A stretch of DNA of 64,000 nt. Origin: a virus. Its lineage: Duplodnaviria; Caudoviricetes. Numbering within the stretch: the first letter of the stretch is position 1; every line of letters starts with the position of its first letter. A model generated the notes under the pieces. It saw only the letters and a program-made list of their open reading frames with translations, had not been told where the DNA came from and searched no databases. This document shows, piece after piece, positions 1-32,109 of this stretch. The position numbers and the translations under genes are program-made. The stretch lies in the IMG/VR virus record IMGVR_UViG_3300024259_001623. The stretch is one strand, 5' to 3'.

Positions 1-1968
1 CTCATTATATTTAATCATGTTCTTGACAACTCTTTTTAACTCTTTATATTTCGAGCTAAAATAATATGGCAATTGACTTTCTCGTCTGTCATATCCAAAT
101 GCCGTTTTACTAGTAATAACATTAGGAGGCGACTGAACTCTCTTGAACACATTAATATTCATCAACTTAACAAACCACTCCAAGTCAACGATAAAAACTT
201 GAGGATCATCAATATTCCATCTCTTAATCATCTCCAAGCTAATATTCAGATTATCAGCTAAAGTCCCATCGATATACCATCTCAAAATCTCTTCTACAGA
301 TTTAATCCTATAATCCATAAATGCTTCTAACAAAGCACAATGATAACCGAACTTCATAGGATCAATCTGATCATTCTTCAACTCAGCAGAAGGTTTGATC
401 TGATCATCGTTAAAAACATTCAACGCATCAGGAATCATCTCATTCGGAATAACTTCATCATTGAAAATTTTATCATTCATAAAACGAGCTAATTCAAATA
501 CTTCTGTCTTTGTTAAATCTCCGATAGGAGCAATGGCTCCACCTACATCTCCATACAATGTAGCATAACCTAAAGCAGTCTCCAACTTATTACCATTATT
601 AGTAAACAATGCATTCTTTCTAGCGGCAATACCAGCCAAAACTACAGAACCTCTAATCCTAGCTTGTTCATTTTCTACATTTAAATCACTCGCTTCGCTA
701 CCAGAAGAATCCATAAACATTGAGGATACATCAAAAATATCATTAATAGGTATTACTGTATATTCAATACCCAACTTCTTCGCTATTTTAGCAGCAGCGT
801 TTTTAGTTTTATCTGAATTATATTGAGTTGGCATATTGATAGCTGAAACTTTATCTTTTCCAACTGCCTTAACCAGCAACGCTGCAACAACAGCACTATC
901 AACTCCACCAGACAATCCAATAACCCAATCATTATGGTCTTGTCTTCCCATAATGTCTTTAATATGTTGGATGCCTCTAATAATAGCTTGATATTTCTCT
1001 TTAATTACATTACGTTTTTCTCTTCTCTCTACATCATACTTGACATCAGAATCGATAACCAAAAGGTCTTCTTTATATGGTTCCCTAATCATAGAAAGAA
1101 TTTCACCTTCTCTACCATAATAAGTAGAGCCACCATCGAAGGTTACAACATTCTTTCCGTTATTCTGGGCACCAACGCAGTTAACATAAAAGAAAGGAAC
1201 CATAGCCTGACCATGCTTTTTAGCATTCTCTACCAAGTAATTAACAGCATTATCTCTGGCTTGATTCTTTCCATGAGTCCAAGGAGAAGCAGATATATTG
1301 ATAATAACATCTGCTCCATTTTTTAGTAATTCATTCGTAGGATTGATAGATTCGCCCCTATATCTATAATCTCTACACCACAAATCTTCGCATAATTCCA
1401 AGCCGATATTAACTTCTTTGCCCTCTATCTCTACACAAAAAGGCATAAAATAATCGTTTAATAAACCATAACCATATTCTTCATACAAATCTAATACAGA
1501 GAAAAAATATCTCTTATCGTCAAAAAATCTATAGTTTGGCAATAATGTTTTAGGTTGGATTCCGCTAGGAATAAATGAACTACTTCTGGATGTACATGAT
1601 CTTTTTACTTCTTTTTTATTTTGGTAGATATAAGCTGCATTATATTTTCTTTTCCTACCATCATGGTTCGGTTGCCAACCACGGGTCATTATGTTATGAG
1701 GAATAGATTCTTCCAGATATACATTGCCATAGATAACAATGATGCCGTCAGAAGCTTCTCTTAACTGTTTATTAAAAGACATGAGCCAACGACAATAATC
1801 ATCATCATTGTACTTGTCGCCTAAAAGATAACCACCAACACACATTTCTGGTGCAACTACTATATCACACCCCTTAGTTTTAGCCTTTTCTATAAAATTC
1901 AAAAGATTGCTAACATTTTTATAAGGGTTGCCAGGAACTACATCCATTTGAATTAATCCGACTTTCAT
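1..1968 (-). CDS. nadE: glutamine-dependent NAD+ synthetase (nitrilase + NAD synthase domains), 3' end runs off the window
   Basis: Absent from the ORF track because it has no stop in the window. Read by hand from ATG at 1968 (ATGA overlap with the upstream HNH stop): MKVGLIQMDVVPGN...PEMCVGGY...LCEDLW...SASPW (nitrilase), GLSGGVDSAVV (PP-loop), NNGNKLETALGYATLYGD; frame is still open at position 1. Confidence 0.95.
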   Translation of the reverse strand, partial: MKVGLIQMDVVPGNPYKNVSNLLNFIEKAKTKGCDIVVAPEMCVGGYLLGDKYNDDDYCRWLMSFNKQLREASDGIIVIYGNVYLEESIPHNIMTRGWQPNHDGRKRKYNAAYIYQNKKEVKRSCTSRSSSFIPSGIQPKTLLPNYRFFDDKRYFFSVLDLYEEYGYGLLNDYFMPFCVEIEGKEVNIGLELCEDLWCRDYRYRGESINPTNELLKNGADVIINISASPWTHGKNQARDNAVNYLVENAKKHGQAMVPFFYVNCVGAQNNGKNVVTFDGGSTYYGREGEILSMIREPYKEDLLVIDSDVKYDVERREKRNVIKEKYQAIIRGIQHIKDIMGRQDHNDWVIGLSGGVDSAVVAALLVKAVGKDKVSAINMPTQYNSDKTKNAAAKIAKKLGIEYTVIPINDIFDVSSMFMDSSGSEASDLNVENEQARIRGSVVLAGIAARKNALFTNNGNKLETALGYATLYGDVGGAIAPIGDLTKTEVFELARFMNDKIFNDEVIPNEMIPDALNVFNDDQIKPSAELKNDQIDPMKFGYHCALLEAFMDYRIKSVEEILRWYIDGTLADNLNISLEMIKRWNIDDPQVFIVDLEWFVKLMNINVFKRVQSPPNVITSKTAFGYDRRESQLPYYFSSKYKELKRVVKNMIKYNE

Positions 1969-2732
1969 CTATTTTTCCTTTTTTTATAAATTTTACCACA
2001 TAATTCACAAAAGAAATCTTCATCATGATTGCTCTTCATTATATTAACTATCCTGTGAACCCATTGTACATTTCCTATTTCATAACCTTTAGAACTATCT
2101 ATTCTATCTAAAGATGCTGTTGTTTTTCCTTGTCTAAACTCTTTACTGTTTTTGGCAAAATACAAACTCAAACCTGACAATGCACATTTACGATTTTGTT
2201 TCAAAAATAAATCCCAAATATATTTTAAATCTATTTTCAATTCATGATCATTGTTTTTAGCATTATGTTTTATTCTACACCAAATAGAGCCAGATATGTC
2301 TCCACACCCAGACCAACCTTTACTTTCTTTTCCTTTACGATGTTTAGTTGTTTTTCCAATGGAACATCCACAACCTATATAATGTCCACTTTTTAACTTA
2401 CCAGCATCTACAACTTTTTTATTTCCACAATCACAACGACATAACCATCTGATTTTAATTTGACCACCTTTGGTTCTTCTCCGTCCATATAGTTTTAAGA
2501 CAGTTAGTTTTTTGAATTTTTGACCTGCTAAATCTTCTATATTATCTCGTTGTTTTTTAAGACAACCACAGCTTTTAGTATGTCCGCTTTTTACTCTATA
2601 TTCTTCCAGTATTACTATTTTGCCGCATTCGCAGTGGCATTTACATCTAGCCTTTCCATTCTTACCTTTTTCAGCTTCTTCAACAACAGTTAATTTAGCA
2701 AATTTTTTACCTATAACATTTTCTTTTTTCAT
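1965..2732 (-). CDS. free-standing His-Me/HNH-type homing endonuclease
   Basis: Two KFxKLTV...CxCxCG...SCGC repeats and C-terminal SLDRIDSSKGYEIGNVQWVHRIVNIMK nuclease motif. Confidence 0.8.
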   Translation of the reverse strand: MKKENVIGKKFAKLTVVEEAEKGKNGKARCKCHCECGKIVILEEYRVKSGHTKSCGCLKKQRDNIEDLAGQKFKKLTVLKLYGRRRTKGGQIKIRWLCRCDCGNKKVVDAGKLKSGHYIGCGCSIGKTTKHRKGKESKGWSGCGDISGSIWCRIKHNAKNNDHELKIDLKYIWDLFLKQNRKCALSGLSLYFAKNSKEFRQGKTTASLDRIDSSKGYEIGNVQWVHRIVNIMKSNHDEDFFCELCGKIYKKRKNR

Positions 2733-2761
2733 AAGATTCTCCTGAATAATATTTCTGCTTT

Positions 2762-2792
2762 TATATTCAAGATCACCTATAAAATATCCTTT
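2762..2792 (-). promoter_or_regulatory. putative phage-sigma promoter (AAAGG-N19-GAATATA)
   Basis: Copy of a motif found 10 times upstream of genes; here upstream of the HNH/nadE pair. Confidence 0.55.
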
Positions 2793-2892
2793 TAAAAAAT
2801 ATTCCCGTTAACTGTTTAGAGGTTATTTTACTGGTTTCTCCGCTATAAGTAGAAAAATTATCCGCTGGTTCAGGGACAGGACGGAGGCCAGA

Positions 2893-3405
2893 CTACTTCT
2901 TAGGTTTGATTCTTTTTTCTATATCTGCAAGAATCAATTTAGGATCGCATTCTGGGCAATCATCGAATTGAATATCTTCTAAATCATATCCCTTAAATAG
3001 TTTAGGCCAACGTTTTTTGATATTAACAGCATCAGAACTTTTCTGAGGATTAGAACCATAATCATTACCATAGGCTTTTTTAGTATCTGTATTCCAAGTA
3101 TTACCATCTTTAGGAATGTAGCCTCTCAGGTTTTTGCCATCCCAATATATAATAAAGAAAACTGGCATTTCCCAATCACCACCGGCAACCCAACCCCAAT
3201 ACGGCAGACCATGACTAGTTACATTATAACCAGTTATATCTTTACAACCATTATAGCCGCTTCCCTTAACATATTCATAATTCTCAAAATCAAATTCGAC
3301 CTTAGATATATCTTTCTGTATCTTTTCTGGAAAATCCCATACATTAATATTATCAGTCTTTTTCATTAAAAATGGTAAACTATGACGCTCAAATTTTCTA
3401 GCCAT
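2893..3405 (-). CDS. hypothetical protein within the NAD gene cluster
   Basis: 170-aa ORF with GGAG RBS, between the Nudix gene and HNH/nadE; no motif recognised. Confidence 0.75.
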   Translation of the reverse strand: MARKFERHSLPFLMKKTDNINVWDFPEKIQKDISKVEFDFENYEYVKGSGYNGCKDITGYNVTSHGLPYWGWVAGGDWEMPVFFIIYWDGKNLRGYIPKDGNTWNTDTKKAYGNDYGSNPQKSSDAVNIKKRWPKLFKGYDLEDIQFDDCPECDPKLILADIEKRIKPKK

Positions 3406-3416
3406 TTATTGTCTCC

Positions 3417-3998
3417 TTAAATCCTACCAGACATTTTCAAATACATCCAACATTTAGCCCCAAGATGTGAGCCTTTGTCAATCTCTTGTTGAATTTGACC
3501 TTTTTCTAATGCCAGAACTTCGATATCTTCATCTGCTTCATTGAATTCAGTTGAGATTTCTCCATAAGCTTCCACGAAAACGCATACAACAGATTCATCT
3601 GACAGTCCAGCAGAATTACATAGCGGAGGACTAACATCTAAAACTCTTACCACTCCAAGACCAGTTTCTTCCTTAAACTCTCTAATAGCAGCTTGCCCTG
3701 GAGTTTCTCCTTCATCAATCAAACCGGCAGGGAATCCCAACTCATAACCATTCAGAGGAACCCTGAACTGCTTAATCAGAACAATTTTTTCATGTTCTGT
3801 TTGAACACTTTGAAAATATGTATCTTGTCCTAAAGTTCCAATGATTACTACGGCATCGGGCTTTGTCTTTGCCTCTACATTTTGATTCTTTCTGGAAGCA
3901 AAAATCCATCTTCCTTGACAATCCTTATGAGTATACTTAGACTCATAAAGATTTATGAATTTCTCATCAGTAATTTTTGTTGTTGTTGTAACTCTCAT
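3417..3998 (-). CDS. Nudix hydrolase, ADP-ribose pyrophosphatase (NudF-like)
   Basis: Nudix box GLIDEGETPGQAAIREFKEETG; QFRVP...ELGFPAG and SAGLSDE segments typical of ADPRases; translationally coupled to pncB. Confidence 0.8.
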   Translation of the reverse strand: MRVTTTTKITDEKFINLYESKYTHKDCQGRWIFASRKNQNVEAKTKPDAVVIIGTLGQDTYFQSVQTEHEKIVLIKQFRVPLNGYELGFPAGLIDEGETPGQAAIREFKEETGLGVVRVLDVSPPLCNSAGLSDESVVCVFVEAYGEISTEFNEADEDIEVLALEKGQIQQEIDKGSHLGAKCWMYLKMSGRI

Positions 3999-5218
3999 TA
4001 TTCATTCTCGCATAAAGGTTTATTCTGGAACATCCACTTGGCGACCTTAACAGCATCTTTATCGCCCGTTTCTTTTCCATCATCATCACTCAACTTAACA
4101 ACTTCAATTCCATTAACAGAACGAAGTTTAATAACCATATTCAAAGACTTACTGCCTTCAAAATCATTGGTAAAATTAGTTCCTATACCGAAAGAACATC
4201 TAATACCAATTTCTTTGCAGTAATGTTCTATTTCAATTGCTTTATCTGGATTCAATCCATCGCTGAAAATAATAACCTTACTCATAGGATCAATATTATT
4301 TTTCTTATAATGATAAACTATTTTATCAGCAAATTTAAAAGGATCACCGCTATCATGCCTAACGCCGTCATACAGTTTAGATAGCCTTAGATTGAAGTTT
4401 CCCAAAAACGCATCGGTACCAAAAGTATCAGTCAATGCAATACCAAGATCAGCATTATAAACTCTAACCCAATTTTGCAAAGCAAAATAGTTTGCATTTC
4501 TTAATCCTTCAAGAGCAGAACATCCCATGAACCATTCATGTGCCATCGTCCCGATAGGCTTAATACCATACTTTCTAGCAAAATAAACATTGCTTGTTCC
4601 CATAAATCTCTTGTTCCATTGGGTTAATCCCTGAGCATAAATAGCTTCATTAATAAAATTATCATGGAAATAATGACTTCTTCTTCGCCTAGTCCCAAAG
4701 TCAGCAAAAGTAACATTATTCTGTACTAACTTAGATACTTTTGCGTTAGCCTTGCGGCAGAAATCTGTATAATCTTTTTCCAAATCAGTTTCTACTGTAT
4801 TAAAGTAAATTTCGCTAATTGCTGCCATCAACGGGACTTCCCATAGAATCGTACTATGCCAAGGTCCGCTGACAGTAATAGACAAATTATTGTCATCATC
4901 AAGATCAATTTCAACCTCATCAGGATTGAACCTATAATCTTTAAGGTACTTAAGATAGGACTTTGTGAAGTAAGGACATGTAGCCTCTAAATATTCATAT
5001 TCACCGCTGGTCAACCTTAACGATGGCAAACCATAATTGATATAAGCTTCTAGCTCTGCCATGAACTTGACATTAAATCTTTGATCGCCTCTATTAGTAA
5101 ATCTGTACGTAACTTCTGCATCAGGGAACAGTTCCAAAACTGCTTGCTGCATTGACAGCTTGTAAGTATCTGTGTCTAATAGACTTACAGCTCTAATAAT
5201 TCTTTCATCGTTTTTCAC
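3998..5218 (-). CDS. pncB: nicotinate phosphoribosyltransferase
   Basis: [69 protein letters not shown]: NAPRTase pattern, not NAMPT. Confidence 0.92.
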
Positions 5219-5262
5219 AATATTATTCCTTTTAAATATTTAGAATATTTCTTCTTTAAACT

Positions 5263-5937
5263 CTACAACCTTTCGGTCAACCATCCTTTATGATTTTTTC
5301 TTTCTCCATTTGCAACTTTTATCATATTTGATGGAGTTAAATTATGTTCTTCACAAAAAACAGATAGACCATTTTCTGTTATAAATATATTTCCATCTGG
5401 ATCAGTCACTTTATATTTTTTAATATTTATTTTTCCTTTTGAAGTTTTACTACATTTAATTCTTGTTTCCGGCTTTGTAATTCTTTTTTTTCTAGCAATA
5501 CTTAAATTCTTTTTATGTTTTTTAGAGAACTTCATTCCTTTTCTAGCTTCACTCATTTTTTTACGAGATTCTATTGAACGTTTTTGGCCTCTTCTTTTTT
5601 CAGCAGCTTTTTTTTGTATTTCCGGAGTTAAACCTTTTCCTCCTTCTCCACCGTTTGCTATGTTGCACATTTTAAGACCTTCTTGTCTAAATTTTGCAAT
5701 ATAGAATATTTCTCTGTCATCTACCTCTTTATCATTAAGGTCATTTTCCAAAACTATAAAATCAAAATCTCTACCCTCTTTCCATAATTTTCTTATTTTA
5801 TTTTGTAAATGATATCTACGTTTATAGGATTTAGCATCAGACCTATGATGCCTCATTCTATTATAAGTATTATTAGTTTTTCCAACATAAAAAATTAAAC
5901 GAGTATCAATTTCTATAAGTGCGTATATTGTATGCAT
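5263..5937 (-). CDS. GIY-YIG homing endonuclease with NUMOD3-type repeats
   Basis: TIY...FYVGKT N-terminus, NIANGGEG linker, SRKKMSEARKG-type repeats. Confidence 0.85.
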   Translation of the reverse strand: MHTIYALIEIDTRLIFYVGKTNNTYNRMRHHRSDAKSYKRRYHLQNKIRKLWKEGRDFDFIVLENDLNDKEVDDREIFYIAKFRQEGLKMCNIANGGEGGKGLTPEIQKKAAEKRRGQKRSIESRKKMSEARKGMKFSKKHKKNLSIARKKRITKPETRIKCSKTSKGKINIKKYKVTDPDGNIFITENGLSVFCEEHNLTPSNMIKVANGERKNHKGWLTERL

Positions 5938-5972
5938 ATTTTTTTAATCCTTATATAAGTTATTATCTAACT

Positions 5973-6003
5973 TATATATCGAATGTTTTATATGCTTTCC
6001 TTT
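5973..6003 (-). promoter_or_regulatory. putative phage-sigma promoter (AAAGG-N18-GATATATA)
   Basis: Motif copy upstream of GIY-YIG/pncB. Confidence 0.5.
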
Positions 6004-6042
6004 ATTTAAGATTAAAATTTATATAAATCATTGTCCGAAAAT

Positions 6043-6276
6043 TTATTCTTCCTTTTCTGGGTTAGCTAAGAGTAAAATCAAATCTCTAGCGGCTTGTTTA
6101 TCTCCACCACGGGCTTTTTGGGTTAACTCTTTTAATTTTGCGTCATATTCAGAAGTGACATTAGGATAAAAAATTTCCAATTGCTCTATAGCCCACTTCA
6201 CAGCTTGTATCGTTTTATCATCTGTAGAAGGCTTTTCGACAAATGCCTTGAGCAATGTCATGTTCTTATTTTCCAT
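6043..6276 (-). CDS. hypothetical protein
   Basis: ORF track 6043..6306; ATG at 6276 follows AAGGTGG and is the more plausible start. Confidence 0.6.
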   Translation of the reverse strand: MENKNMTLLKAFVEKPSTDDKTIQAVKWAIEQLEIFYPNVTSEYDAKLKELTQKARGGDKQAARDLILLLANPEKEE

Positions 6277-6297
6277 CTCTGCCACCTTATTCAAAAA

Positions 6298-6354
6298 ATG
6301 CTGCAAAAAATATTATAATCTTCTTGTGAAGAACCACAATATTCCTTGCAGCAT
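6298..6354 (-). other. 57-nt intergenic hairpin (26 bp, 5 G-U, 1 bulge, ACAA loop)
   Basis: ATGCTGCAAGGAATATTGTGGTTCTTC-ACAA-GAAGATTATAATATTTTTTGCAGCAT on the minus strand. Confidence 0.6.
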
Positions 6355-6359
6355 CAGGG

Positions 6360-6377
6360 AAAACCGCATTTTTGCGG
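6360..6377 (-). terminator. weak intrinsic terminator
   Basis: CCGCA-AAAA-TGCGG-TTTT right after the 6380 stop. Confidence 0.35.
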
Positions 6378-6379
6378 GA

Positions 6380-6664
6380 TTAAACGACCTTATAAGTCTG
6401 TCCGTTAAGCTTCAACTGTCTGATTCCCGAAACATTGACATTACGGAAGTTCTTCTTCGTCATGTCAAAAACAGTCATCAGTCCAGTTCCCTTGCGACTC
6501 TTCTTAGTTCCCTTAACTCCCTTACTGACTCCAGTTCGGCAGTTCATAGTTCGCAACTCGTTATTGCTTCGCTTGATAAAACTAACGGTCATAAACTTAC
6601 CCTTAGAATTCTGCATCTTTGTTACAGCTTCTTGAACAGTAATCTTCTTGCTTCTCGTACTCAT
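6380..6664 (-). CDS. small basic phage protein, SH3-like fold family
   Basis: GKFMTVSFIKRSNNELRTMNCRTGV...VFDMTKKNFRNVN pattern seen in small phage SH3-fold proteins. Confidence 0.55.
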   Translation of the reverse strand: MSTRSKKITVQEAVTKMQNSKGKFMTVSFIKRSNNELRTMNCRTGVSKGVKGTKKSRKGTGLMTVFDMTKKNFRNVNVSGIRQLKLNGQTYKVV

Positions 6665-6690
6665 CTTTTTCTCCTTGTTAAGATTTTAAT

Positions 6691-7617
6691 TTACCATGTT
6701 TTATATGCGTCTTTAATTATTTCCAAACTTTCTGAACTTCTTAAACCATAATTGGAACAAGACAAATCAACCATTTGTTTTCCATCGCAATAAGAAGACG
6801 GTCCTGCTTTGCATTCTACAGCATCAATATACATCGAAAATTTACCATCTTCTGTATCGAACAAACGATCAGGAATATCCGCCTCAAGTATCTGCTCTTC
6901 ATAAGTATAAGCAAGAACAGTATCTATTGACAATCTAGGAAGCTTTTCGCTTTCCTTGAGTTCTTTACAAATCTTAATCCAATTGTCGTTGTTTTCTGGA
7001 GTATAACTCGATCCTCTACCACTTTCTTTATATCCTAGCAGAGTAACTCCATAATATAGTTCATGGGCTTTTTCCAGTATCTCTTTTAAATCATGCTCCG
7101 AAGCAGAACCCATAACATAATGCAACTGCTTACAGAGTCTTTTACCCCAATAAGGATTGCTCTCGATACCATTGAACACCATGCATGATTCTAAAAGCTC
7201 AATATCTTCAACGCATTTAACTGAAAAAGCAAATGAACCACAGTTTTCTATGATGCCGGGCCATTTTCTAGCGTCCCTCATCCAATCCATAGATTTTGTA
7301 GTAAAATTAGGAACAACTCCTTGTTTCCTAAAAGCTTTCAGAATATCAACAAAATCTGGATGGCTAGTTGGTTCTCCACCACCTATTGCAACTTCAAATA
7401 CTCTCATTTCCTGCAATATATAAGCTATGTTTTCTATTGTATTTAAATCTGCATGACTTCCTTTAGTATCAGAATTCTGATAACAATTATGAACAAGAAT
7501 ATTATTTGCAAAATAATTATGTTCTGGAGTAGTTCCGATATTATAAACTTTACCTTTATAAGGGATCTTTTTAACAGATTTAACTTTTATTATGAACTTC
7601 GCCTTGTTAACTTTCAT
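6691..7617 (-). CDS. split intein C-part (44 aa) fused to the C-terminal portion of a radical SAM enzyme
   Basis: MKVN...KVKSVKKIPYKGKVYNIGTTPEHNYFANNILVHN|CYQNS (intein blocks F/G, HN/C junction at 7486/7485); then VAIGGGEPTSHP, VPNFTT radical SAM core. Confidence 0.9.
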   Translation of the reverse strand: MKVNKAKFIIKVKSVKKIPYKGKVYNIGTTPEHNYFANNILVHNCYQNSDTKGSHADLNTIENIAYILQEMRVFEVAIGGGEPTSHPDFVDILKAFRKQGVVPNFTTKSMDWMRDARKWPGIIENCGSFAFSVKCVEDIELLESCMVFNGIESNPYWGKRLCKQLHYVMGSASEHDLKEILEKAHELYYGVTLLGYKESGRGSSYTPENNDNWIKICKELKESEKLPRLSIDTVLAYTYEEQILEADIPDRLFDTEDGKFSMYIDAVECKAGPSSYCDGKQMVDLSCSNYGLRSSESLEIIKDAYKTW

Positions 7618-7636
7618 CTTTTTAATCCTTCTTTCC

Positions 7637-8596
7637 TTAATGTCTTTGAAAATCTACTTTTTTATGACAACTAACGCAATAAGTAATCCCTATTGCATTT
7701 TTATGTTCTTCTATAATTTGATCATTCACCCGTTCAAACTCTTCATAACTTAACAAATCCATTATTCTTCCATTTAATATCTTTTCTACAATATTTTGAA
7801 AAGTTGGACTTATATGATGAACTTCTAGACGACCTCCAACTGATCCACATTTACAACAGGTAAAATCATCTCTTTCTAAAATAGGTCTTATCCATGCCTT
7901 ATACAACCTAGATCGTATAACTTGACACCTATCCCTATTTCCTTTCCATAGATGATGATTTTTACCCCTGATATAAACAATTTCACCACTTTTAACTCTT
8001 CTTTTAATTGTTGCTTTTACTTTTGCGACTACATCTTTACGCTTCATAGGATTCTTTTCACCCTTCATCTTGTCAGACGCAAAACTAGAAAATTCTTCTG
8101 GAGTCATTCTTGTTACAGGCGTTTTAATTTTTTCATAATCATCGATATTAACTTCTTTTTTCATAAAAGTGGACGCCATCTTTGCCCTGACTTCTTTTCT
8201 CTTCATTGGATTATTTTGTTTCATTCTTTGCGAAGATTTTTTGTTATTTCCTTTTTTACAGATATCACATACATTGATATCAAATTCAGATAAAGTTTTT
8301 GTTTTCTTTTTTACAACTGTTTTTATAAATTTATTACACTTGCGACATTTCAAATCAATATTAATCTCTTTAAAATTATGAATCTTAATGTTTTTACAAT
8401 TACCACATAAAACTTCGTTTCTTTTACCTATGAATTCTTTATTACAATATTTACATTTTTTTGTTTTATTTTTTTTATGATATTGATCATTTCTTTTTTG
8501 TTTTTTACATTTTTCAGAACAATATTTTCCATTAGTTTTGGCAATAAATTGTTTTTTACATTTTCCGCAATATGCTATATGTCCCATAATGAACAC
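7637..8596 (-). CDS. HNH homing endonuclease between the split intein halves
   Basis: N-terminal CxxC zinc fingers; ILERDDFTCCKCG...LEVHHI...ITYCVSCHKKVD. Confidence 0.85.
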   Translation of the reverse strand: MFIMGHIAYCGKCKKQFIAKTNGKYCSEKCKKQKRNDQYHKKNKTKKCKYCNKEFIGKRNEVLCGNCKNIKIHNFKEINIDLKCRKCNKFIKTVVKKKTKTLSEFDINVCDICKKGNNKKSSQRMKQNNPMKRKEVRAKMASTFMKKEVNIDDYEKIKTPVTRMTPEEFSSFASDKMKGEKNPMKRKDVVAKVKATIKRRVKSGEIVYIRGKNHHLWKGNRDRCQVIRSRLYKAWIRPILERDDFTCCKCGSVGGRLEVHHISPTFQNIVEKILNGRIMDLLSYEEFERVNDQIIEEHKNAIGITYCVSCHKKVDFQRH

Positions 8597-8620
8597 TCCT
8601 TTAAACGAATATATGTATTT

Positions 8621-8652
8621 TATACATTCGCTAACTTAAAAAAGTATCCTTC
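8621..8652 (-). promoter_or_regulatory. putative phage-sigma promoter (GAAGG-N18-GAATGTATA)
   Basis: Motif copy upstream of HNH 7637..8596. Confidence 0.55.
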
Positions 8653-9574
8653 AAAATTTTAAAATATGATCATTTTCTTCAATATTTTCTGCTTTTATCC
8701 AGCCACGATTTAAAGTATATACTTCATGATTCGGAGTCAATTTAATTTCTGAGCCATCTTCTGCTTCAATAACTATTAAATCACCTTCATAATCTCTTTC
8801 AAAGATTTGTTCTGTAACTAATTCAACTCTTTTTTCTTCTTTATTATTATATCCATAAACTATATCATTAATCTTGATATCTTTTATAGCAACTTCTCCA
8901 TCTGGAGTTAAGATCATAGTCTCTGGGACTAAACAGAATTCGCAACCCTTGTCGCACCAATTGGTTATCTTCAAATCAACCAATTCAGGCGATGAAGATT
9001 TTGTATATTCTTCTTTAGTATCTTCAAAAGAGAACTTTACTTTCCCGCCAGTTTTTCTATTAAAAATAACCCACCAGATTCCATCTTTTCTTGCGATAAC
9101 ATCATCGTTGTGAAAATCCGTTTCCAATGGAAGTCTAAATGCTTGACCTTGATCAGTTAATGGATGACTCTCATCAGAATTATCATTACCACCTAAGATA
9201 ACCAAATCTTCTCTTAGCATATATTTTTTGAAATCTGCGAAAAATTCCTCATCAAAATAATCGCCTTTCCAATTAGTAGGAAGAGCTAAAACACTTTGAT
9301 GGTCAATATAAGCAGTTGTCGATTCGATATCAAGACCTGTAACTTCCTTTACAACCAATCTGGCGACTTTATCATTAAAAATATCTCTTAAATTATTGAA
9401 TAACGTAAGAGACAGATAATCTCCTTTAGATTCTTCAGAAGCAGCAGTAAAAAATCCCCATCCGAAATCTCCATCCGTAGCCATGTGATCGTCAGATATT
9501 CCATCTAAGAAAATCAACGAATGACTTGAGCTACTGTTAGTCGCTAAACCCAATCTTACTTTTGCTATATTCAT
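8651..9574 (-). CDS. radical SAM N-terminal portion (TNSSS-motif domain + CxxxCxx) fused to split intein N-part (94 aa)
   Basis: ...ELVDLKITNWCDKGCEF|CLVPETMILTPDG (block A, Cys1 codon 8933-8935)...IKLTPNHEVYT (block B TxxH)...GWIKAENI*. Confidence 0.9.
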   Translation of the reverse strand: MNIAKVRLGLATNSSSSHSLIFLDGISDDHMATDGDFGWGFFTAASEESKGDYLSLTLFNNLRDIFNDKVARLVVKEVTGLDIESTTAYIDHQSVLALPTNWKGDYFDEEFFADFKKYMLREDLVILGGNDNSDESHPLTDQGQAFRLPLETDFHNDDVIARKDGIWWVIFNRKTGGKVKFSFEDTKEEYTKSSSPELVDLKITNWCDKGCEFCLVPETMILTPDGEVAIKDIKINDIVYGYNNKEEKRVELVTEQIFERDYEGDLIVIEAEDGSEIKLTPNHEVYTLNRGWIKAENIEENDHILKF

Positions 9575-10092
9575 TATTCTACCTTTATATCAACTAAAAA
9601 CAGGTTATTAATCCTGAATGTCGGAGGACCATCAGTAGGATTCCGCCAAACAGCAATATAATTTTCATACGTATCAATTTCAAACTTAGAGAACAAAGAA
9701 TTAAACGGCAAATACTTCAAACATGTCTCTCCGATCAAAATCGGTTTATTTAACGTTATTTTAGTCCCTTCAATTAAAACATCACTTTTGTCTACATGGC
9801 AACATTTCAAAAATGAAGATAATTGGACTTTTCCTTGTTCTCTATAGATTTGTGTATGCCGTTTCTTTGGTACAGAAACTTCATTAGAATCGTCAGACGA
9901 ATCAGAGGACTCATCTTCATCTTTTTCATCTTTTTCATCTTCATAAGAAACATATTCGCAGATATAGAAATTACCGTCTTGTCTTTTAACGGAATTTTTT
10001 CTTTGCCTTCCTCTGCCTTTAGATTCTCGTCTTAATTCGTTTTCGTTTTGATCAACCCAAATGTATTCTGCCATCGTTCTTCCTTTCGTCAT
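9574..10092 (-). CDS. hypothetical protein
   Basis: 172-aa ORF coupled to the next gene; acidic/Ser linker. Confidence 0.7.
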   Translation of the reverse strand: MTKGRTMAEYIWVDQNENELRRESKGRGRQRKNSVKRQDGNFYICEYVSYEDEKDEKDEDESSDSSDDSNEVSVPKKRHTQIYREQGKVQLSSFLKCCHVDKSDVLIEGTKITLNKPILIGETCLKYLPFNSLFSKFEIDTYENYIAVWRNPTDGPPTFRINNLFLVDIKVE

Positions 10093-10141
10093 AATTATCC
10101 GTAGATAAGAAATTTTTTGAATCTGTTCAGGGAAAATGCAG

Positions 10142-10177
10142 ACAACCCCCCGCTTTATTTCTAAAACGGGGGATTGT
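10142..10177 (-). terminator. intrinsic terminator-like hairpin
   Basis: ACAATCCCCCG-14nt-CGGGGGGTTGT downstream of the SSB-like gene. Confidence 0.6.
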
Positions 10178-10218
10178 TACTTTCCTAAACTTAATTCTTT
10201 TCTTCGTTTGTTACGGCT

Positions 10219-10785
10219 TTAGATATCTAGCGATGTGACTTTGTTTCCTGCTACTTCTGCTACCGAACCGCTTGTTTCTTCTTTAGCAGTATTAAGACCC
10301 AAAAGTCTGTCTTTCATCTCTTCCAAAGTAGGCAACTCTGCTACTTGATCAGCCAGCTTATTCCAAATATCCGTAGGAATAGGCTTGTCAACAACCTTAA
10401 CGCCTTCGGCATTGTATTCTGTATTCAAACCAGAACCAGTCGAAGTCAACTTAACGAAGCTTAACATATTAAGATTACTAACGGTCTTTTGGACGCTTGC
10501 GATGCCCTTTGCAGCCATCTGACCACAGTTACAGACCTTTACCTTCTTTGTTCCTTCATCATCAATGAAAAGTCCATAAAACAAATAACTTGTTCTAGCC
10601 TTTTCACCTGCTACTGGAGGGCGACTTCTGTTCAGTTCGCTGTCAAATACATTTGCATAAGCAACGATTTCGTTGGAGGGGAGAAAAGTTTGAGGAAGGT
10701 TTTTCGCGCTCAAGAAAACTAAATCATCGTTATTTCCCGAACTCTTTTGATCACCGATACTGTTCCAATCTACTGTTGATGACAT
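10219..10785 (-). CDS. putative single-stranded DNA-binding protein (gp32/gp2.5-like)
   Basis: MSSTVDWNSIG...DLVFL N-terminus, KKVKVCNCG strand, LTSTGSGLNTEY hairpin, LPTLEE C-terminal segment; resembles phage SSBs; own promoter and terminator. Confidence 0.5.
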   Translation of the reverse strand: MSSTVDWNSIGDQKSSGNNDDLVFLSAKNLPQTFLPSNEIVAYANVFDSELNRSRPPVAGEKARTSYLFYGLFIDDEGTKKVKVCNCGQMAAKGIASVQKTVSNLNMLSFVKLTSTGSGLNTEYNAEGVKVVDKPIPTDIWNKLADQVAELPTLEEMKDRLLGLNTAKEETSGSVAEVAGNKVTSLDI

Positions 10786-10891
10786 TTTTGACTCCTATGG
10801 GTATTATACCCGATTAATGGAATTGGCCGTATGCCTTTTCCTAGCGTCTTATGGCTTTATGACTGCTATAAAACAATGTCCTTAGCCATAA

Positions 10892-10923
10892 TACTACTTC
10901 GTCAAAAATGCACTTTCTCCTTT
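10892..10923 (-). promoter_or_regulatory. putative phage-sigma promoter (AAAGG-N18-GAAGTAGTA)
   Basis: Motif copy upstream of the SSB-like gene. Confidence 0.55.
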
Positions 10924-10930
10924 AACTTTT

Positions 10931-11209
10931 TTACTTTTCTGAATATTTTTTTATTAAATCACAAATATTATTTCGTACCTCGCATATATCAATTATACCA
11001 TTAATGATATTTAGTTGTTTAGTATCTAAAGTAGTTATGACCAAAAACTGATGAAGAAATTGTGATTGTGCGTATTGTTCATTTTTTGAATCTAATTTCA
11101 TCAAATATTGAACCCTGGCTTGAGGATCAAATAATATAAGTTTTTCTCTTAAATAATTAGTTGCGAATGCTAAATCCGCACCAAATCTCATTGTAATAAA
11201 ATATAACAT
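10931..11209 (-). CDS. hypothetical protein
   Basis: ORF track starts at 11350, but ATG at 11209 follows AAGGAGG and avoids overlap with 11211..11423. Confidence 0.6.
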   Translation of the reverse strand: MLYFITMRFGADLAFATNYLREKLILFDPQARVQYLMKLDSKNEQYAQSQFLHQFLVITTLDTKQLNIINGIIDICEVRNNICDLIKKYSEK

Positions 11210-11210
11210 A

Positions 11211-11423
11211 TTATGCCTCCTTCTTTTCGAAGAATCTTGCTCCTTTACCGCAAAATCCCATAACTCGACATTTAAAATATCCGCCCTGTCTTTGAAGAAC
11301 ACAATTTTTAAACGTAAGTTCTCCACCAGTTGTAGAGTCTGGTCTACCACATTCCAAACCTAAACTCTTAAAACGAGGATCAGATTCGGAATGTTGACAT
11401 TCTGTACATAATTTCTTGCTCAT
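11211..11423 (-). CDS. small Cys-rich hypothetical protein
   Basis: CxxC...C...C...C...CG pattern, GGAG RBS. Confidence 0.65.
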   Translation of the reverse strand: MSKKLCTECQHSESDPRFKSLGLECGRPDSTTGGELTFKNCVLQRQGGYFKCRVMGFCGKGARFFEKKEA

Positions 11424-11435
11424 CTTAGTTCTCCT

Positions 11436-12053
11436 TTAATAACCTCTATACAATCTATTTTTATTAATATAATCAAAAACTTTTTCATCTAAAAGACGCA
11501 AAATATTATCATTACCATGAATTTTTTCTCTTACTTCTGTAGAAGATACTTCCATAATTGGAGTTTTATCTCCCTCATCATTTAAAAAGATGTGCGGAGG
11601 CTTCAAAAACCAATTTACTCCTGGCTTCATCTCTATTCCCTTCCTTGGAATAACAACAAATCTGATCATTTTCTCAAGATATTCATAATTTACCCATTTA
11701 TCAAAATTGTTAGCATTGTCCTGTCCGATTATAAAAGAAAAATCAAACTTATGCTTTGCCCAATCTTCATTTTGCAACCTTTTGACTAAATTATATGTCT
11801 CCCCGCTAAGACAATTTACTATTTCATAATCAGATACTTTAATCCTACCATCAACCTGAGCAGCTAACTTACACATCTCCACTCTTTTATCAGGAGAAAC
11901 CATTGACTTGCCGTACATGTGTTCATAGGCAGGCATCAACCAAACTTGTTGAGTAATTTTCTTATTAAGAATATATTTTGCAACATCTATATGTCCTTTA
12001 GTAACAGGGTTAAAAGCCCCTCCTAATAATCCTATTTTAATCTTTTTTCTCAT
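11436..12053 (-). CDS. nadD: nicotinate-nucleotide adenylyltransferase
   Basis: IGLLGGAFNPVTKGH (HIGH-like), WLMPAYEH, FIIGQDN, VSSTEVR: bacterial NadD pattern. Confidence 0.92.
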   Translation of the reverse strand: MRKKIKIGLLGGAFNPVTKGHIDVAKYILNKKITQQVWLMPAYEHMYGKSMVSPDKRVEMCKLAAQVDGRIKVSDYEIVNCLSGETYNLVKRLQNEDWAKHKFDFSFIIGQDNANNFDKWVNYEYLEKMIRFVVIPRKGIEMKPGVNWFLKPPHIFLNDEGDKTPIMEVSSTEVREKIHGNDNILRLLDEKVFDYINKNRLYRGY

Positions 12054-12777
12054 GTTTCCCTAAATTAGACTCACTAATTTTCCTTTTCCATTCAGATGAG
12101 ATTTCTCTACCTTTTAATTTTTCACTAATTTTTAAACGAGTTTCTTTTGTTTGTTTTTTTCCTAAACGAGATTTGCCTATTTTAGCTTTGTGTTCTTCTG
12201 ATAATTGCCTGCCTTTTAATGACTGACTTATTTTCTCTTTAGTAGAAGAATTTAATTTTCTTCCTTTCAAAGATTTAGATATTTTATCTTTCCATTCCTG
12301 AGTTATTATCCTACCCTTCAATGCTTCGCTTCTTTTTTCTAAAGTTTCTGGACTAATTATTCTACCGATTTGCCTTTCTCTATTTTGTTTTTTAAATTCT
12401 TCTGATCTTTTTAGCCCCTTAGTTGCTTTACTAATTTTATCCCTGATTTCTTCTTTCAAAGGATGATTAGTAAAATTATCTCCTCCATTTCCACCTTCTG
12501 AGATATTATAACCATTTTTTATTGTATCTAACTGCTTTATATAAAATTTTTCTTGAGTATTTAAATTTACTTCATTTTTGATACCATCTTCTATGATTTC
12601 CCAAGAAAATTTATCAAAACCATATTTTCTTATAGCATTATAAAATTTACTTTTATATCCACGTCCATTATTTTCCGCATTCCATTTGTGTTCATATTTA
12701 CGTTTATCAAGGGATTTTGCACATTTACCAATATAAATTTTATTATTAATAACGTTCGTTGCCTTATAAATAAACAT
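12037..12777 (-). CDS. GIY-YIG homing endonuclease with NUMOD3 repeats
   Basis: FIYKATNVINNKIYIG, GYNISEGGNG, repeated KISxSLKGR units. Confidence 0.88.
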   Translation of the reverse strand: MFIYKATNVINNKIYIGKCAKSLDKRKYEHKWNAENNGRGYKSKFYNAIRKYGFDKFSWEIIEDGIKNEVNLNTQEKFYIKQLDTIKNGYNISEGGNGGDNFTNHPLKEEIRDKISKATKGLKRSEEFKKQNRERQIGRIISPETLEKRSEALKGRIITQEWKDKISKSLKGRKLNSSTKEKISQSLKGRQLSEEHKAKIGKSRLGKKQTKETRLKISEKLKGREISSEWKRKISESNLGKHEKKD

Positions 12778-12823
12778 TTTTTCTTCTCCTATATATAAGT
12801 ATGGCTAATATTAGCCTACTAAC

Positions 12824-12854
12824 ATATATTCAGAGAAAAGATATTATATCCTCT
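12824..12854 (-). promoter_or_regulatory. putative phage-sigma promoter (AGAGG-N18-GAATATAT)
   Basis: Motif copy upstream of GIY-YIG/nadD. Confidence 0.55.
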
Positions 12855-13119
12855 TATTTTCTTTAGCCTTTTTTTGCCTTATAATATCTGCTACATCCAT
12901 AGCTACAACAATCAAAAACAATATAGGAAGAATAATGCCAATCAATGATGCAGTACCAAGACACGCAGTAGCCATACCAAAAATAAAACACAAACTATGC
13001 AGAACAACATGTCCTACTCTAGTTACATACTCATTTCCAGATAAAATATGCCAAATAGCTACAGCAACATTTATAAGATATAACAGTCCAGCTATAACAC
13101 TGATATATGGTAACATCAT
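12844..13119 (-). CDS. small membrane protein
   Basis: Three hydrophobic segments, basic C-terminus. Confidence 0.7.
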   Translation of the reverse strand: MMLPYISVIAGLLYLINVAVAIWHILSGNEYVTRVGHVVLHSLCFIFGMATACLGTASLIGIILPILFLIVVAMDVADIIRQKKAKENKRI

Positions 13120-13133
13120 TTCTCCTATTTTTA

Positions 13134-13177
13134 AAAAAACGGGTTACAGATTCGTTAAAACCCATAACCCGTTTTTT
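13134..13177 (-). terminator. intrinsic terminator (possibly bidirectional)
   Basis: AAAAAACGGGTTA...TAACCCGTTTTTT perfect inverted repeat right after the rIIB stop. Confidence 0.75.
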
Positions 13178-13189
13178 ATCAACTAGTTA

Positions 13190-14430: not shown

Positions 14431-14459
14431 ATTATAGCATTATTTTACGCAGTTTGCAA
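14431..14459 (-). promoter_or_regulatory. host sigma-70-type (early) promoter TTGCAA-N17-TATAAT
   Basis: Near-consensus -35/-10 upstream of rIIB. Confidence 0.65.
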
Positions 14460-20468: not shown

Positions 20469-20867
20469 TTACTTCTCCTGATATTCTTCTACAAACGACA
20501 ATTTTATATCTAACCAATCCTTAACATTCAAAAAAGACGGGATATCTCTTTCGGTGGCCTGATTTAGCATATTTCTAGTACCTCTGCTATTTTCTATTTC
20601 GGTGGTATAACCCACGACATAATCTGGTTCACCTTCATCCAACATTTGTTTATTTCTTATTGGACCAGCAGATTTTCCATATTTTTTCCAATCAGCAGGA
20701 TATTTTTCGACTATTAATCCTCTTTCGGTGGCACAATTCCTAGCTAAACTATCTGCTCCTTTTGCTTCGCCTTCAATAATTGTGCTGTCATCAGGCAGGG
20801 AATCAATAAACTTTTTTATTGTTTCGGTGTCTGAGAAATTTCTACTTCCGCATATTAATATCTTCAT
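20469..20867 (-). CDS. SLOG-family protein (DUF2493/YspA-like)
   Basis: MKILICGSRNF, IIEGEAKGADSLA, YPADWKKYGKSAGPIRNKQM, SRGTRNM; start taken at ATG 20867 rather than 20906. Confidence 0.82.
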   Translation of the reverse strand: MKILICGSRNFSDTETIKKFIDSLPDDSTIIEGEAKGADSLARNCATERGLIVEKYPADWKKYGKSAGPIRNKQMLDEGEPDYVVGYTTEIENSRGTRNMLNQATERDIPSFLNVKDWLDIKLSFVEEYQEK

Positions 20868-20868
20868 T

Positions 20869-26997: not shown

Positions 26998-29157
26998 CTA
27001 ATTTTCTATTAACGAAATCAGTTCGTCAATATCTTCTATAATCATTATCTCTTCCCCTTGTCCTTTCAGTTCAAAAGCCTTATCTTTCTTCTTACCGGGA
27101 TCATCTCCCACAATAACAAAATTTGTCTTCTTGCTTACAGAACTACTAATCTTGCCACCTTCATTTTCAATCTGGTCATACCAATAAGTCTTGCCATCTG
27201 CAAAAGAACCAGTAAAGCAGAACTTCTTACCAGTAAACTTACCAGTCTTGGGAAGTTCTAATTCAACGTAATTTAGAATATCATCCAACATAAATCTATT
27301 ACGAGCAAAGAACTCTACCAATACCTTAGCTGTCTTATTGCCGATATCTTGAACCTTTTCTAATGCATCTACAGGCATATTTCTGATTGTAGTTAAATCT
27401 CCATTGTAATGAGAGATTAAAGCTCTAGCAGTTCCCTTGCCCGCACCAGGAATACCTAATGCAGATAAGAATTTTTCTACAGGCACAACTTTCTTTTTCC
27501 CATGAATCTTCATTATCTTTTTCAGTAACAAATCATTATCTTTGATCTTTTCTGGATTTTTAACCATGTGAATTCTAGCAACGACTAACAATGCAGAACG
27601 TTCTGTAATCCCAGCCTTCTTCAAATCATCTAACGTTATTCTGTAAAAATCTGGAATTGTTTTAACCAAATTATTTTCAACCAATTTGTTAACCATGCTT
27701 TCGGCTATTCCCTTGACCTCAATAGAAGAAAGATAATTAACTAGATTGCCAACATTTTTAGCAGGACAATCTGTATTATAACAGAACAATTCAGAAGCAT
27801 TGGAACTGGTTACCATCTCCAATTCGCCATTGCAAGAGCCGCATTTATCAGGAGTAACTACGTTATTAGCCTTTTTGACGACACCTATCATCTTAGGAAT
27901 AATCTTTCCGCTCTTGATAAGCTTGAACTGAGTTCCAATGCCTACGCCTTCATTTATAATGATACCGACATTGTGAGCAGTACACTGACTAACCATAGTC
28001 CCATCTAACTTAACTGGTTTAAATTGCATAACTGGGGTTACTTTGCCAGTTCTGCCTGTCTGCCAAATAATACTTTCGACAGTAGGAACAACTACTTTCT
28101 CTGAGAATTTCCAAGCCAATTTGCCTCTTGGATTACCATTAGCTCTATCTCCATGACGACCATGTTGTTCGGAATCTTCAAGATTGTTTACCGATATTAC
28201 AACTCCATCAATTTCATAATCCAATGCATCTAGGGTCGATTCAACAAAAGCTAAATCTGAATATTTAAAAGGTCTTGCTTGGACGAAAGGAACTCCCAGA
28301 ATTTGATTACACCACTTGGCTCTTTCGATTTCGGTTTTATATGGAGCTTTTTCTAAACCTTCTATAGAATAAGCAGTAAAACTGATCTTCCTATGTTTTG
28401 TAATAGTAGGATCATCGAATTGACGAATGCTGCCAGCAGTATAGTTTCTCGGGTTAGCAGGTTCCTTTTTGATCTTGGCAGGATTTATACCCTTCTTGAA
28501 ATCTTCAACAATCTTTTCAAAAACAGAAATCTTACATTCCAATTCCCCACGAATGGAACATGTAATCTTCTTTGGCAATACTTCAAGAATACCTTTGACA
28601 TGCTTGGCTTGTTCTGTAACGTCTTCCCCATTAACTCCATCTCTGGGTCTTAGACCAGCCTTAGTCAATTTGCCATCTTTATAATACAGAGAAATTGCTA
28701 CTCCATCACGTTTAAGAGATTGGCAGAAGAAAGGAGTTCCATCATTATCCTTATCCCCCTTATAACCAAGTTCATCAGAACATTTTTTGAGCCAATTAGC
28801 AAGAATGTCATTCTTCATGCTCAATGTTCCATTGGCTTTAGAGATGGAAGTCATGGGAGGGTTATGAACAACTTTTTCGACATCAGTATCTATATTAGAT
28901 GCAGTTACACCATCAAATGTCTTGGAATTAGGCTTTAAAGCCGCCAGTTCTCTTCTAAGAGCGTCATATTGATCATTCGATACTTGATCTCCATCCTCAA
29001 TAGTTTGCCCCCTATACTCTTTATCTTCTGTAAAAGTAAAGGTTATAGGGGCAATACATGTATCACCGTCCTCAAAAAGAGAATCAAGAACTGCGATTAT
29101 TGACTCTAATTCTTCTGCCGTGTTCGTTGGTACATCATTTTTCATATCTTTCTCCAT
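26998..29157 (-). CDS. ligA: NAD+-dependent DNA ligase
   Basis: QSLKRDGVAI (motif I KxDG), GEDVT, RNYTAGSIRQ, EIDGVVI, QTGRTGKVTPV, C4 zinc finger, HhH, BRCT (FCFTGS...SSVSKKTNFVIVG). Confidence 0.95.
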   Translation of the reverse strand: MEKDMKNDVPTNTAEELESIIAVLDSLFEDGDTCIAPITFTFTEDKEYRGQTIEDGDQVSNDQYDALRRELAALKPNSKTFDGVTASNIDTDVEKVVHNPPMTSISKANGTLSMKNDILANWLKKCSDELGYKGDKDNDGTPFFCQSLKRDGVAISLYYKDGKLTKAGLRPRDGVNGEDVTEQAKHVKGILEVLPKKITCSIRGELECKISVFEKIVEDFKKGINPAKIKKEPANPRNYTAGSIRQFDDPTITKHRKISFTAYSIEGLEKAPYKTEIERAKWCNQILGVPFVQARPFKYSDLAFVESTLDALDYEIDGVVISVNNLEDSEQHGRHGDRANGNPRGKLAWKFSEKVVVPTVESIIWQTGRTGKVTPVMQFKPVKLDGTMVSQCTAHNVGIIINEGVGIGTQFKLIKSGKIIPKMIGVVKKANNVVTPDKCGSCNGELEMVTSSNASELFCYNTDCPAKNVGNLVNYLSSIEVKGIAESMVNKLVENNLVKTIPDFYRITLDDLKKAGITERSALLVVARIHMVKNPEKIKDNDLLLKKIMKIHGKKKVVPVEKFLSALGIPGAGKGTARALISHYNGDLTTIRNMPVDALEKVQDIGNKTAKVLVEFFARNRFMLDDILNYVELELPKTGKFTGKKFCFTGSFADGKTYWYDQIENEGGKISSSVSKKTNFVIVGDDPGKKKDKAFELKGQGEEIMIIEDIDELISLIEN

Positions 29158-32100: not shown

Positions 32101-32109
32101 ATTAACCTC

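Follow-up and report, generated by a model that had tools for sequence, protein, structure and literature searches.

The DNA analysed here, hereafter the window, is a stretch of 64,000 nucleotides (nt) from the IMG/VR virus record IMGVR_UViG_3300024259_001623 (Duplodnaviria; Caudoviricetes). Its left end, together with the DNA immediately beyond position 1, carries genes for a nicotinamidase, a nicotinate phosphoribosyltransferase (NAPRTase), a nicotinate-nucleotide adenylyltransferase, a glutamine-dependent NAD+ (nicotinamide adenine dinucleotide) synthetase and a Nudix hydrolase. These genes are predicted to form a complete deamidating NAD+ salvage pathway, which a huge marine phage very probably possesses as its own. 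The genes are the following, the last being located on a contig (L005) that extends the window:

11436..12053, minus strand: nadD, nicotinate-nucleotide adenylyltransferase, 205 residues (TIGR00482)
3998..5218, minus strand: pncB, nicotinate phosphoribosyltransferase, 406 residues (PF17767 and PF04095, TIGR01514, NF003704)
3417..3998, minus strand: Nudix hydrolase, NUDT5-like, 193 residues, candidate ADP-ribose/ADP-sugar pyrophosphatase (PF00293, 54.2 bits)
1..1968, minus strand: nadE, glutamine-dependent NAD+ synthetase, 657 residues (PF00795 and PF02540, TIGR00552)
L005:12827-13435, i.e. 95-703 nt beyond window position 1, downstream of nadE: pncA, nicotinamidase, 202 residues (NF008623, 2wt9)

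The PncB protein scores above both curated NAPRTase cut-offs (TIGR01514, 446.9 vs 269.55; NF003704, 474.2 vs 379). Its structural matches are six solved NAPRTases, of which yeast Npt1 is the best (E 1e-91), with no NAMPT (nicotinamide phosphoribosyltransferase) at E<=1e-5, and the phage NAMPT family phrog_448 matches it weakly (70 bits). The NAPRTase motifs LLDTDTYK and DFGTRR are intact, and the His of the GTMAHEW motif is conserved, aligning with GTVAHEW of yeast Npt1 (1vlp); we take this His of GT(M/V)AHEW to be the residue that is autophosphorylated in ATP-coupled NAPRTases, such as the Salmonella and yeast enzymes. NadD passes the cut-off of TIGR00482 (124.2 bits vs 112.45), a family whose name covers both nicotinate mononucleotide (NaMN) and nicotinamide mononucleotide (NMN) as NadD substrates. 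Its alignment with solved bacterial NadD spans the whole length and takes in the GGAFNPVTKGH and SSTEVR motifs, and its best solved relatives are all bacterial NadD.

The reading frame of NadE leaves the window at its left edge; 656 residues are encoded inside it, and just one further codon and the stop codon fall outside. Both of its domains are clearly recognized (PF00795 CN_hydrolase, 37.5 vs 23.2; PF02540 NAD_synthase, 162.2 vs 21 bits, E 1.6e-47), and it scores 141.6 bits against the TIGR00552 cut-off of 63.65. Aligned with 5kha, the protein shows the glutaminase residues Glu, Lys and Cys (PE..., K..PNY, CED) as well as the GLSGGVDS motif. NadE groups with NAD(+) synthases of 645-690 residues from Woesearchaeota, Asgard archaea and Maribacter, at 50-58% identity. 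The Nudix protein has a complete Nudix box (GX5EX7REUXEEXGU), GLIDEGETPGQAAIREFKEETGL, and its best solved relative is the human ADP-sugar pyrophosphatase NUDT5 (E 8e-19, full-length), with QFRxP and FPAGL conserved. The preliminary description of this DNA had placed NadE, Nudix, PncB and NadD genes here on the minus strand, and family scores and motifs agree with it. Its reading of the enzymes as the deamidated (Preiss-Handler) set, with a true NAPRTase and a bacterial NadD instead of NAMPT and NMNAT, is upheld by the family cut-offs and the structural matches described above.

The same description had expected a nicotinamidase gene just past position 1. Fourteen contigs of public assemblies also encode the HNH homing endonuclease that lies beside nadE, and three of these loci (L005, L006 and L007) were compared: they are 100% identical to window positions 1-12732 and then extend beyond position 1. 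There, 95 nt past the edge, lies pncA, as anticipated. The spacer between nadE and pncA is 88 nt and contains a TTGGAA-16-TATAAT match and AAGGAG. The PncA protein, of the isochorismatase family, passes the nicotinamidase model NF008623 (242.8 vs 174 bits) and matches the Acinetobacter baumannii nicotinamidase 2wt9 (E 8e-55), with VDVQNDF, QDWHPQNH, QKG and ATDYCV aligned, and it keeps both the catalytic Asp-Lys-Cys triad and the Asp/His/His metal site. The phage therefore appears to encode the whole route PncA-PncB-NadD-NadE, from nicotinamide to NAD+. The search for further NAD genes covered the window and 2.6 kb beyond it. Neither PncC/CinA (NMN deamidase), PnuC, NadR nor NAMPT was found among the window's open reading frames (ORFs) of at least 120 residues; a 175-residue AAA_28 P-loop protein at 37968-38495 has no adenylyltransferase domain.

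Downstream of pncA, two genes of no assigned function are followed by a gene for an AAA_33 P-loop kinase (L005:14199-14690, about 1.5-2 kb beyond window position 1), for which no solved relative was found. A relative with 37% identity lies near PncB and NadE in another locus (L001), and in a further one (L088) an AAA_33/APS-kinase gene is divergent from PncB. Could this be a nucleotide or nucleoside kinase?

We propose the following route. PncA would hydrolyse the amide of nicotinamide to give nicotinate, which PncB would couple to phosphoribosyl pyrophosphate (PRPP), driven by ATP, to form NaMN; NadD would adenylate NaMN to nicotinate adenine dinucleotide (NaAD), and the two-domain NadE would amidate NaAD to NAD+ with glutamine and ATP. 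The Nudix enzyme would most likely cleave ADP-ribose to yield AMP and ribose-5-phosphate, with the synthesis of PRPP from the latter left to the host. The NAD+ supply of the infected cell would thereby become independent of the salvage enzymes of the host. Computation establishes the gene identities, the intact catalytic motifs, the setting in a phage genome and the repeated occurrence of the gene sets on viral contigs; that the enzymes are active on these substrates, and that NAD+ is raised or maintained in infection, we infer.

Several points weigh against this reading. No biochemical data on any phage enzyme of the deamidated route were found in the literature searched, and the route is expensive, costing several ATP as well as PRPP and glutamine. 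NadE does not reach the equivalog model NF010588 (PRK13981; 307.7 vs 479 bits). No Prs (Pribosyl_synth family) was found among the window's ORFs of at least 120 residues or in the L005 extension. The Nudix protein scores below the cut-offs of the ADP-ribose pyrophosphatase models (NudE, 46.4/169; NudF, 31.6/248; TIGR00052, 30.1/79.55), and the phage protein has Ala in place of the Pro of 'DPGLS', a NUDT5 segment downstream of the Nudix box; we read this Pro as a hallmark of ADP-ribose pyrophosphatases. Because the bacterial models stay below their cut-offs, assignment to the 'ADP-ribose type' is the best reading of the Nudix sequence, and not a demonstrated one. Finally, the gene set is loose rather than a single tight operon, NadD lying 6.2 kb from PncB. 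Since unrelated genes separate NadD from the rest by about 6 kb, co-regulation is not shown, and a promoter scan of the window gave 71 sites where 66 were expected, no better than shuffled sequence.

The stretch is part of a huge marine phage and not a flank of host DNA, as the preliminary description had also held. Phage markers lie around and among the NAD genes, viz. rIIA/rIIB, four homing endonucleases within 13 kb, a sigma factor, Thg1, a tRNA nucleotidyltransferase and an NAD-dependent ligase, and a 434,625-bp contig carries the exact PncB sequence. The NAD genes have the same GC content (0.31-0.37) and GC content at third codon positions (0.25-0.30) as their neighbours, and the composition is uniform with one coding strand. 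In the phage database, the best relatives are huge phages of the LR7565xx series, with 42-46% identity for PncB, 53% for NadD and 49% for PncA; the NadD relative is that of the 735-kb phage LR756501 (53%). Near-identical DNA was not found in 50,697 phage records. Among seawater metagenome runs, nine contain at least half of the sequence words of the stretch, and 16 contain a share of at least 0.24; no RNA run was among those listed.

Relatives of the salvage enzymes were detected in 13 (PncB), 21 (NadD), 15 (NadE) and 11 (PncA) of these 50,697 phage records, and a profile of PncB relatives matched 300 IMG/VR stretches. The co-occurrence of these genes, which the preliminary description had proposed to survey, was determined within 10 kb of PncB at 82 loci: PncA was present at 34, NadE at 27, NadD at 22 and a NUDT5-like Nudix at five. 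PncA, PncB, NadD and NadE all lie inside 10 kb in L029, L041, L058, L082 and L084; in L041 they form a tight block PncB-NadE-PncA-NadD that has Thg1, an RNA-binding protein and an RNA ligase on its flanks, and in L082 the flanks hold homing endonucleases and a dNMP kinase. Orthologues of the Nudix gene adjoin PncB/NadE in L067, L077, L021 and L053, and stand between or beside both in L067 and L077. The grouping of NAD genes is therefore not due to chance but represents a recurring module. The nearest PncB relatives (57-63%) are found on phage-like contigs of 219 kb, 461 kb and 36 kb (L008), where PncB in all cases adjoins a macrodomain, a sigma factor and ribonucleotide reductase; on the 219-kb and 461-kb contigs a short NadE is located a few kb from PncB.

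The 735-kb phage LR756501 itself encodes PncB and PncA 6.6 kb apart (L086, LR756501.1 418275-443420), in addition to NadD; a NadE relative was not detected in it at E 1e-5. This phage has been said to carry nadD only (Li et al. 2024, PMC11662467).

Every long ORF of window positions 1-14,000 is on the minus strand, and the GC skew is negative throughout the window. Read along the coding strand, the order is rIIA, rIIB, GIY-YIG/NUMOD3, nadD, three small genes, a split radical-SAM gene, two small ORFs, GIY-YIG, pncB, Nudix, a 170-residue gene, HNH and nadE. The neighbouring genes, and the NAD-dependent ligase that the preliminary description had correctly located further along the window, are:

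26998..29157, minus strand: NAD-dependent DNA ligase, a phage-encoded NAD+ user (phrog_3869, E 6.2e-125)
14445-16706, minus strand: rIIA
13190-14398, minus strand: rIIB
12037..12777, minus strand: GIY-YIG/NUMOD3 homing endonuclease, overlapping the nadD start (PF07460, PF01541)
10931-11350, 10219-10785 and 9574-10092, minus strand: three small genes without family matches
8651-9574 and 6691-7617, minus strand: halves of a radical-SAM gene, with an intervening HNH gene at 7637-8596
5263..5937, minus strand: GIY-YIG homing endonuclease upstream of pncB (PF01541, E 1.1e-9)
2893..3405, minus strand: gene for a 170-residue protein, 8 nt after the Nudix stop codon, with its own AAGGAG
1965..2732, minus strand: HNH homing endonuclease between the 170-residue gene and nadE (phrog_374, E 1.6e-33)

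The ATG of the Nudix gene shares one base with the stop codon of pncB (TAATG), and the two genes are predicted to be translationally coupled. The stop of the HNH gene at 1965..2732 and the start of nadE overlap by 4 nt. There are four homing-endonuclease genes within 11 kb (1965-12777), three of which abut or overlap NAD genes. Their presence may account for the scattered layout of the pathway in this phage, compared with the tight block of L041. The DNA between NadD and PncB holds the split radical-SAM gene, a gene resembling those of single-strand DNA-binding proteins (SSB) and homing endonucleases. These intervening genes were considered as hidden members of the pathway and rejected: the 188-residue protein appears to be a phage SSB/gp32-like OB-fold protein, and the others have no matches.

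Some further features of this intergenic and intervening DNA were observed. The Atlas model of the 188-residue protein (10219-10785, minus strand) resembles single-strand DNA-binding proteins of the phage gp32/DUF5895/Pam3_gp34 type (TM score 0.5-0.6). The first ORF of the radical-SAM pair ends in the N-part of an intein and the second begins with the C-part of an intein, with an HNH gene between them; the arrangement looks like a split intein within a split gene. Two terminator-like hairpins (10142-10177 and 6364-6377, minus strand) are each followed by TTTTCCCTG(A). The motif TTTCCCTG, found after these two terminators, occurs in five copies in the window vs 2.2 expected, which is not significant.

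The 170-residue protein encoded between Nudix and NadE has no match in Pfam, NCBIfam or PHROG. Its family is large, with 1333 representative relatives, and an alignment of 50 sequences shows 15 invariant positions around the core GGDWE...YWDG...RGYIP...GN.WN. The AlphaFold2 model has a pLDDT (predicted local distance difference test) of 96; compared with the PDB, Foldseek gave no match at E <=0.001 and an exhaustive aligner a best Z of 3.8, and the sole match in the AlphaFold DB is one unnamed cluster. The gene encodes a member of a large uncharacterised family with a confidently predicted fold that has no solved relative. A role as a PncC-like enzyme was considered and rejected, as there is neither a Pfam match nor a fold match. 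Since one relative (56%) overlaps the stop of an NAPRTase gene, in L088, another (47-48%) follows RtcB, and a copy of the gene occurs in only one of the 82 PncB loci, a part for it in the NAD pathway is a lead and not a finding.

Elsewhere in the window, a gene for GMP reductase (NF003470, above cut-off) adjoins that for the tRNA-His guanylyltransferase Thg1; these and the tRNA nucleotidyltransferase, a protein of 855 residues, are located at 31033-32862 and 55046-57613 on the minus strand. A cREC_REC cyclic-phosphate processing domain is found within 25.7-43.9 kb, and together these look like an RNA-repair set. A second Nudix gene, unrelated to the first, is present at 25762-26238 (minus strand). 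A 340-residue protein (22215-23237, minus strand) has an N-terminal prepilin-type methylation motif (PF07963), making it a phage-borne pseudopilin, and within 20469-21477 (minus strand) the gene of a YspA/SLOG-family protein (PF10686) overlaps with that of a sigma-70 region-2 protein.

Phage clusters of this kind have been described before. 'NAD-jumbo phages' (e.g. Kuafu_71 and Kuafu_19) carry clustered pncB, nadD and nadE completing the Preiss-Handler pathway, and a phage pncA is mentioned; they also carry NAD+-consuming genes, and self-supply of NAD+ was proposed as the role (Li et al. 2024, Microbiome, PMC11662467). The present phage, with a 434,625-bp contig and pncB, nadD and nadE near each other, falls under their definition (a phage of >200 kb with every enzyme of one NAD+ pathway). 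Compared by description, it differs in coming from seawater and not from the animal gut with Bacteroidota hosts, in that its group includes pncA, the NUDT5-like Nudix and a long glutamine-dependent NadE, and in that homing endonucleases and unrelated genes interrupt the group. For Xanthomonas phage X1, pncB, nadM, nadD and nadE were reported in 2026, with a speculative link to NAD+ depletion (PMC13384950). The cultured Agrobacterium jumbo phage Atu_ph07 (MF403008, 490 kb) has had annotations since its release for PncB, for an ADP-ribose pyrophosphatase 3 kb away and for NAD synthetase; the identity of its PncB is only 30%, 89 kb separate the NAD synthetase from PncB, and no NadD or PncA relative was detected in it with the queries used here. 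The bacterial pncA-pncB-nadE operons, such as PA4918-4920 of Pseudomonas aeruginosa, contain the same enzymes and likewise link ADP-ribose and nicotinamide salvage, the regulator of the P. aeruginosa operon being ADP-ribose-dependent according to a reference cited in PMC7318152. Unlike that regulator, the phage Nudix protein, of 193 residues, has the full catalytic box and no room for a DNA-binding domain, and it therefore looks like an enzyme.

The predicted route is enzymatically distinct from the NAD+ reconstitution systems known from phages. NARP1 (Adps and Namat) has a comparable proposed purpose, rebuilding NAD+ from the products of NADases, but it pyrophosphorylates ADP-ribose and joins it to nicotinamide directly, whereas here ADP-ribose would be hydrolysed; Adps has no PRPS-like counterpart in this window, where the NAPRTase is the sole phosphoribosyltransferase. 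NARP2 and the NadV/NatV pair of Vibrio phage KVP40 (Nampt and Nmnat-Nudix) likewise lead from nicotinamide and PRPP to NAD+ and have an ADP-ribose-type Nudix linked to them. That route is amidated and takes two steps via NMN, and NARP2 needs NAMPT and an Nmnat of the NadM/NadR type; the present phage has NAPRTase and NadD instead, and its route would take four steps via nicotinate, NaMN and NaAD. An amidated route alone is treated by Iyer et al. 2022. NARP3 (PnuC and NadR), another phage system that restores NAD+ and acts against Sir2-HerA (PMC13464706), imports nicotinamide riboside and converts it via NadR, neither protein being found in this window. The preliminary description had proposed a third route distinct from NARP1 and NARP2. 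The enzymatic distinction stands, and extends to NARP3, but the novelty does not, as pncB-nadD-nadE clusters of phages are published (PMC11662467) and the link to NAD+ depletion has been speculated upon (PMC13384950); the name NARP3 is also taken, by PnuC and NadR (PMC13464706). Deamidated clusters of phages were already known from sequence. Little is added as a discovery, such gene sets having been published before and being a common sight on large viral contigs. Neither a 'NARP4' nor any experimentally tested deamidated phage route was found in the literature searched.

With respect to the purpose of these genes, supply of the phage's own NAD+ users and defeat of NAD+-depleting defences plausibly fit the data equally well, and the two are mutually compatible. 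According to the first explanation, which we give nearly an even chance, the pathway mainly feeds the heavy NAD+ use of the phage itself, for instance by the ligase, and boosts the host pool whatever defences are present. The NAD-dependent ligase in the window speaks for this. However, NAD-dependent ligases release NMN and not nicotinamide. PncA and PncB therefore cannot recycle the ligase product, and NadD could do so only if it accepted NMN; of the earlier proposal that the ligase is a client of the pathway, its consumption of NAD+ is retained, while its product falls outside recycling by PncA and PncB. The jumbo phage PA5oct upregulates the host pncA-pncB1-nadE operon, which indicates a general demand (PMC7318152), and self-supply is the published view of the 'NAD-jumbo phages' (PMC11662467). 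The explanation is not exclusive, being compatible with a role in counter-defence.

Counter-defence, the view of the preliminary description, is a serious possibility, although we place it below an even chance. The set would here be a further NARP-type system that rebuilds NAD+ from the products of SIR2, TIR and SEFIR NADases: PncA-PncB-NadD-NadE would process nicotinamide, and the Nudix would channel ADP-ribose towards PRPP. For the further speculation in that description, that a pool kept as NaAD might escape NADases, no evidence was found on either side. Each NADase product is indeed matched by an enzyme of the gene group, with the Nudix predicted to be coupled to pncB and with pncA adjoining nadE. 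The group adjoins rIIA/rIIB, arrangements of PncB, Nudix and NadE recur on other viral contigs, and NARP1-3 demonstrate that rebuilding NAD+ is a real phage strategy. On the other hand, the literature searched yielded no experiment on a deamidated phage route, four steps at a high ATP cost compare poorly with the two genes of NARP1-3, the layout is scattered, and the ADP-ribose branch is not closed, there being no Prs in the window. Moreover, NAD+ users encoded by the phage give the same products, so that the genes can be explained without invoking defence. A more specific version appears rather unlikely to us: that PncA, PncB, Nudix, NadD and NadE constitute a fourth phage NAD+ reconstitution system that defeats NADases, with the 170-residue protein as accessory factor, in which the deamidated branch would capture nicotinamide irreversibly and the coupled Nudix would convert ADP-ribose to AMP and ribose-5-phosphate.

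Clearance of products is improbable as the chief function. PncA and the Nudix would then mainly remove nicotinamide as well as ADP-ribose or signalling nucleotides akin to it, with a secondary place for PncB, NadD and NadE. Nicotinamide is an inhibitor of sirtuins, PARPs and ARTs, the Nudix is of the ADP-sugar type and PncA is intact, but three costly downstream enzymes with intact motifs, which recur together, would be left unexplained.

A host-derived flank, bacterial contamination or a pair that is really amidated and NARP2-like can be dismissed as hardly credible: among named organisms, it is cellular ones that have the nearest relatives of PncB and NadE (Methanosarcinales, Woesearchaeota, Maribacter; 50-58%), but no relative exceeds 66% identity, the NAD genes share the composition of the phage, phage genes and homing endonucleases are interleaved with them on both sides, the contig reaches 434,625 bp, and PncB and NadD pass the NAPRTase and NadD cut-offs, with a weak NAMPT match. 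As phage and cellular PncB relatives are about equally distant (51-63%), we make no claim on a donor.

If the enzymes of the deamidating pathway work as predicted, the phage would be able to make NAD+ from nicotinamide without any salvage enzyme of its host. This bears on the productivity of huge phages in NAD+-depleted cells, and on the bypass of many NADase-based defences by a longer, deamidated route, which, once tested at the bench, would be a defined system beside NARP1-3.

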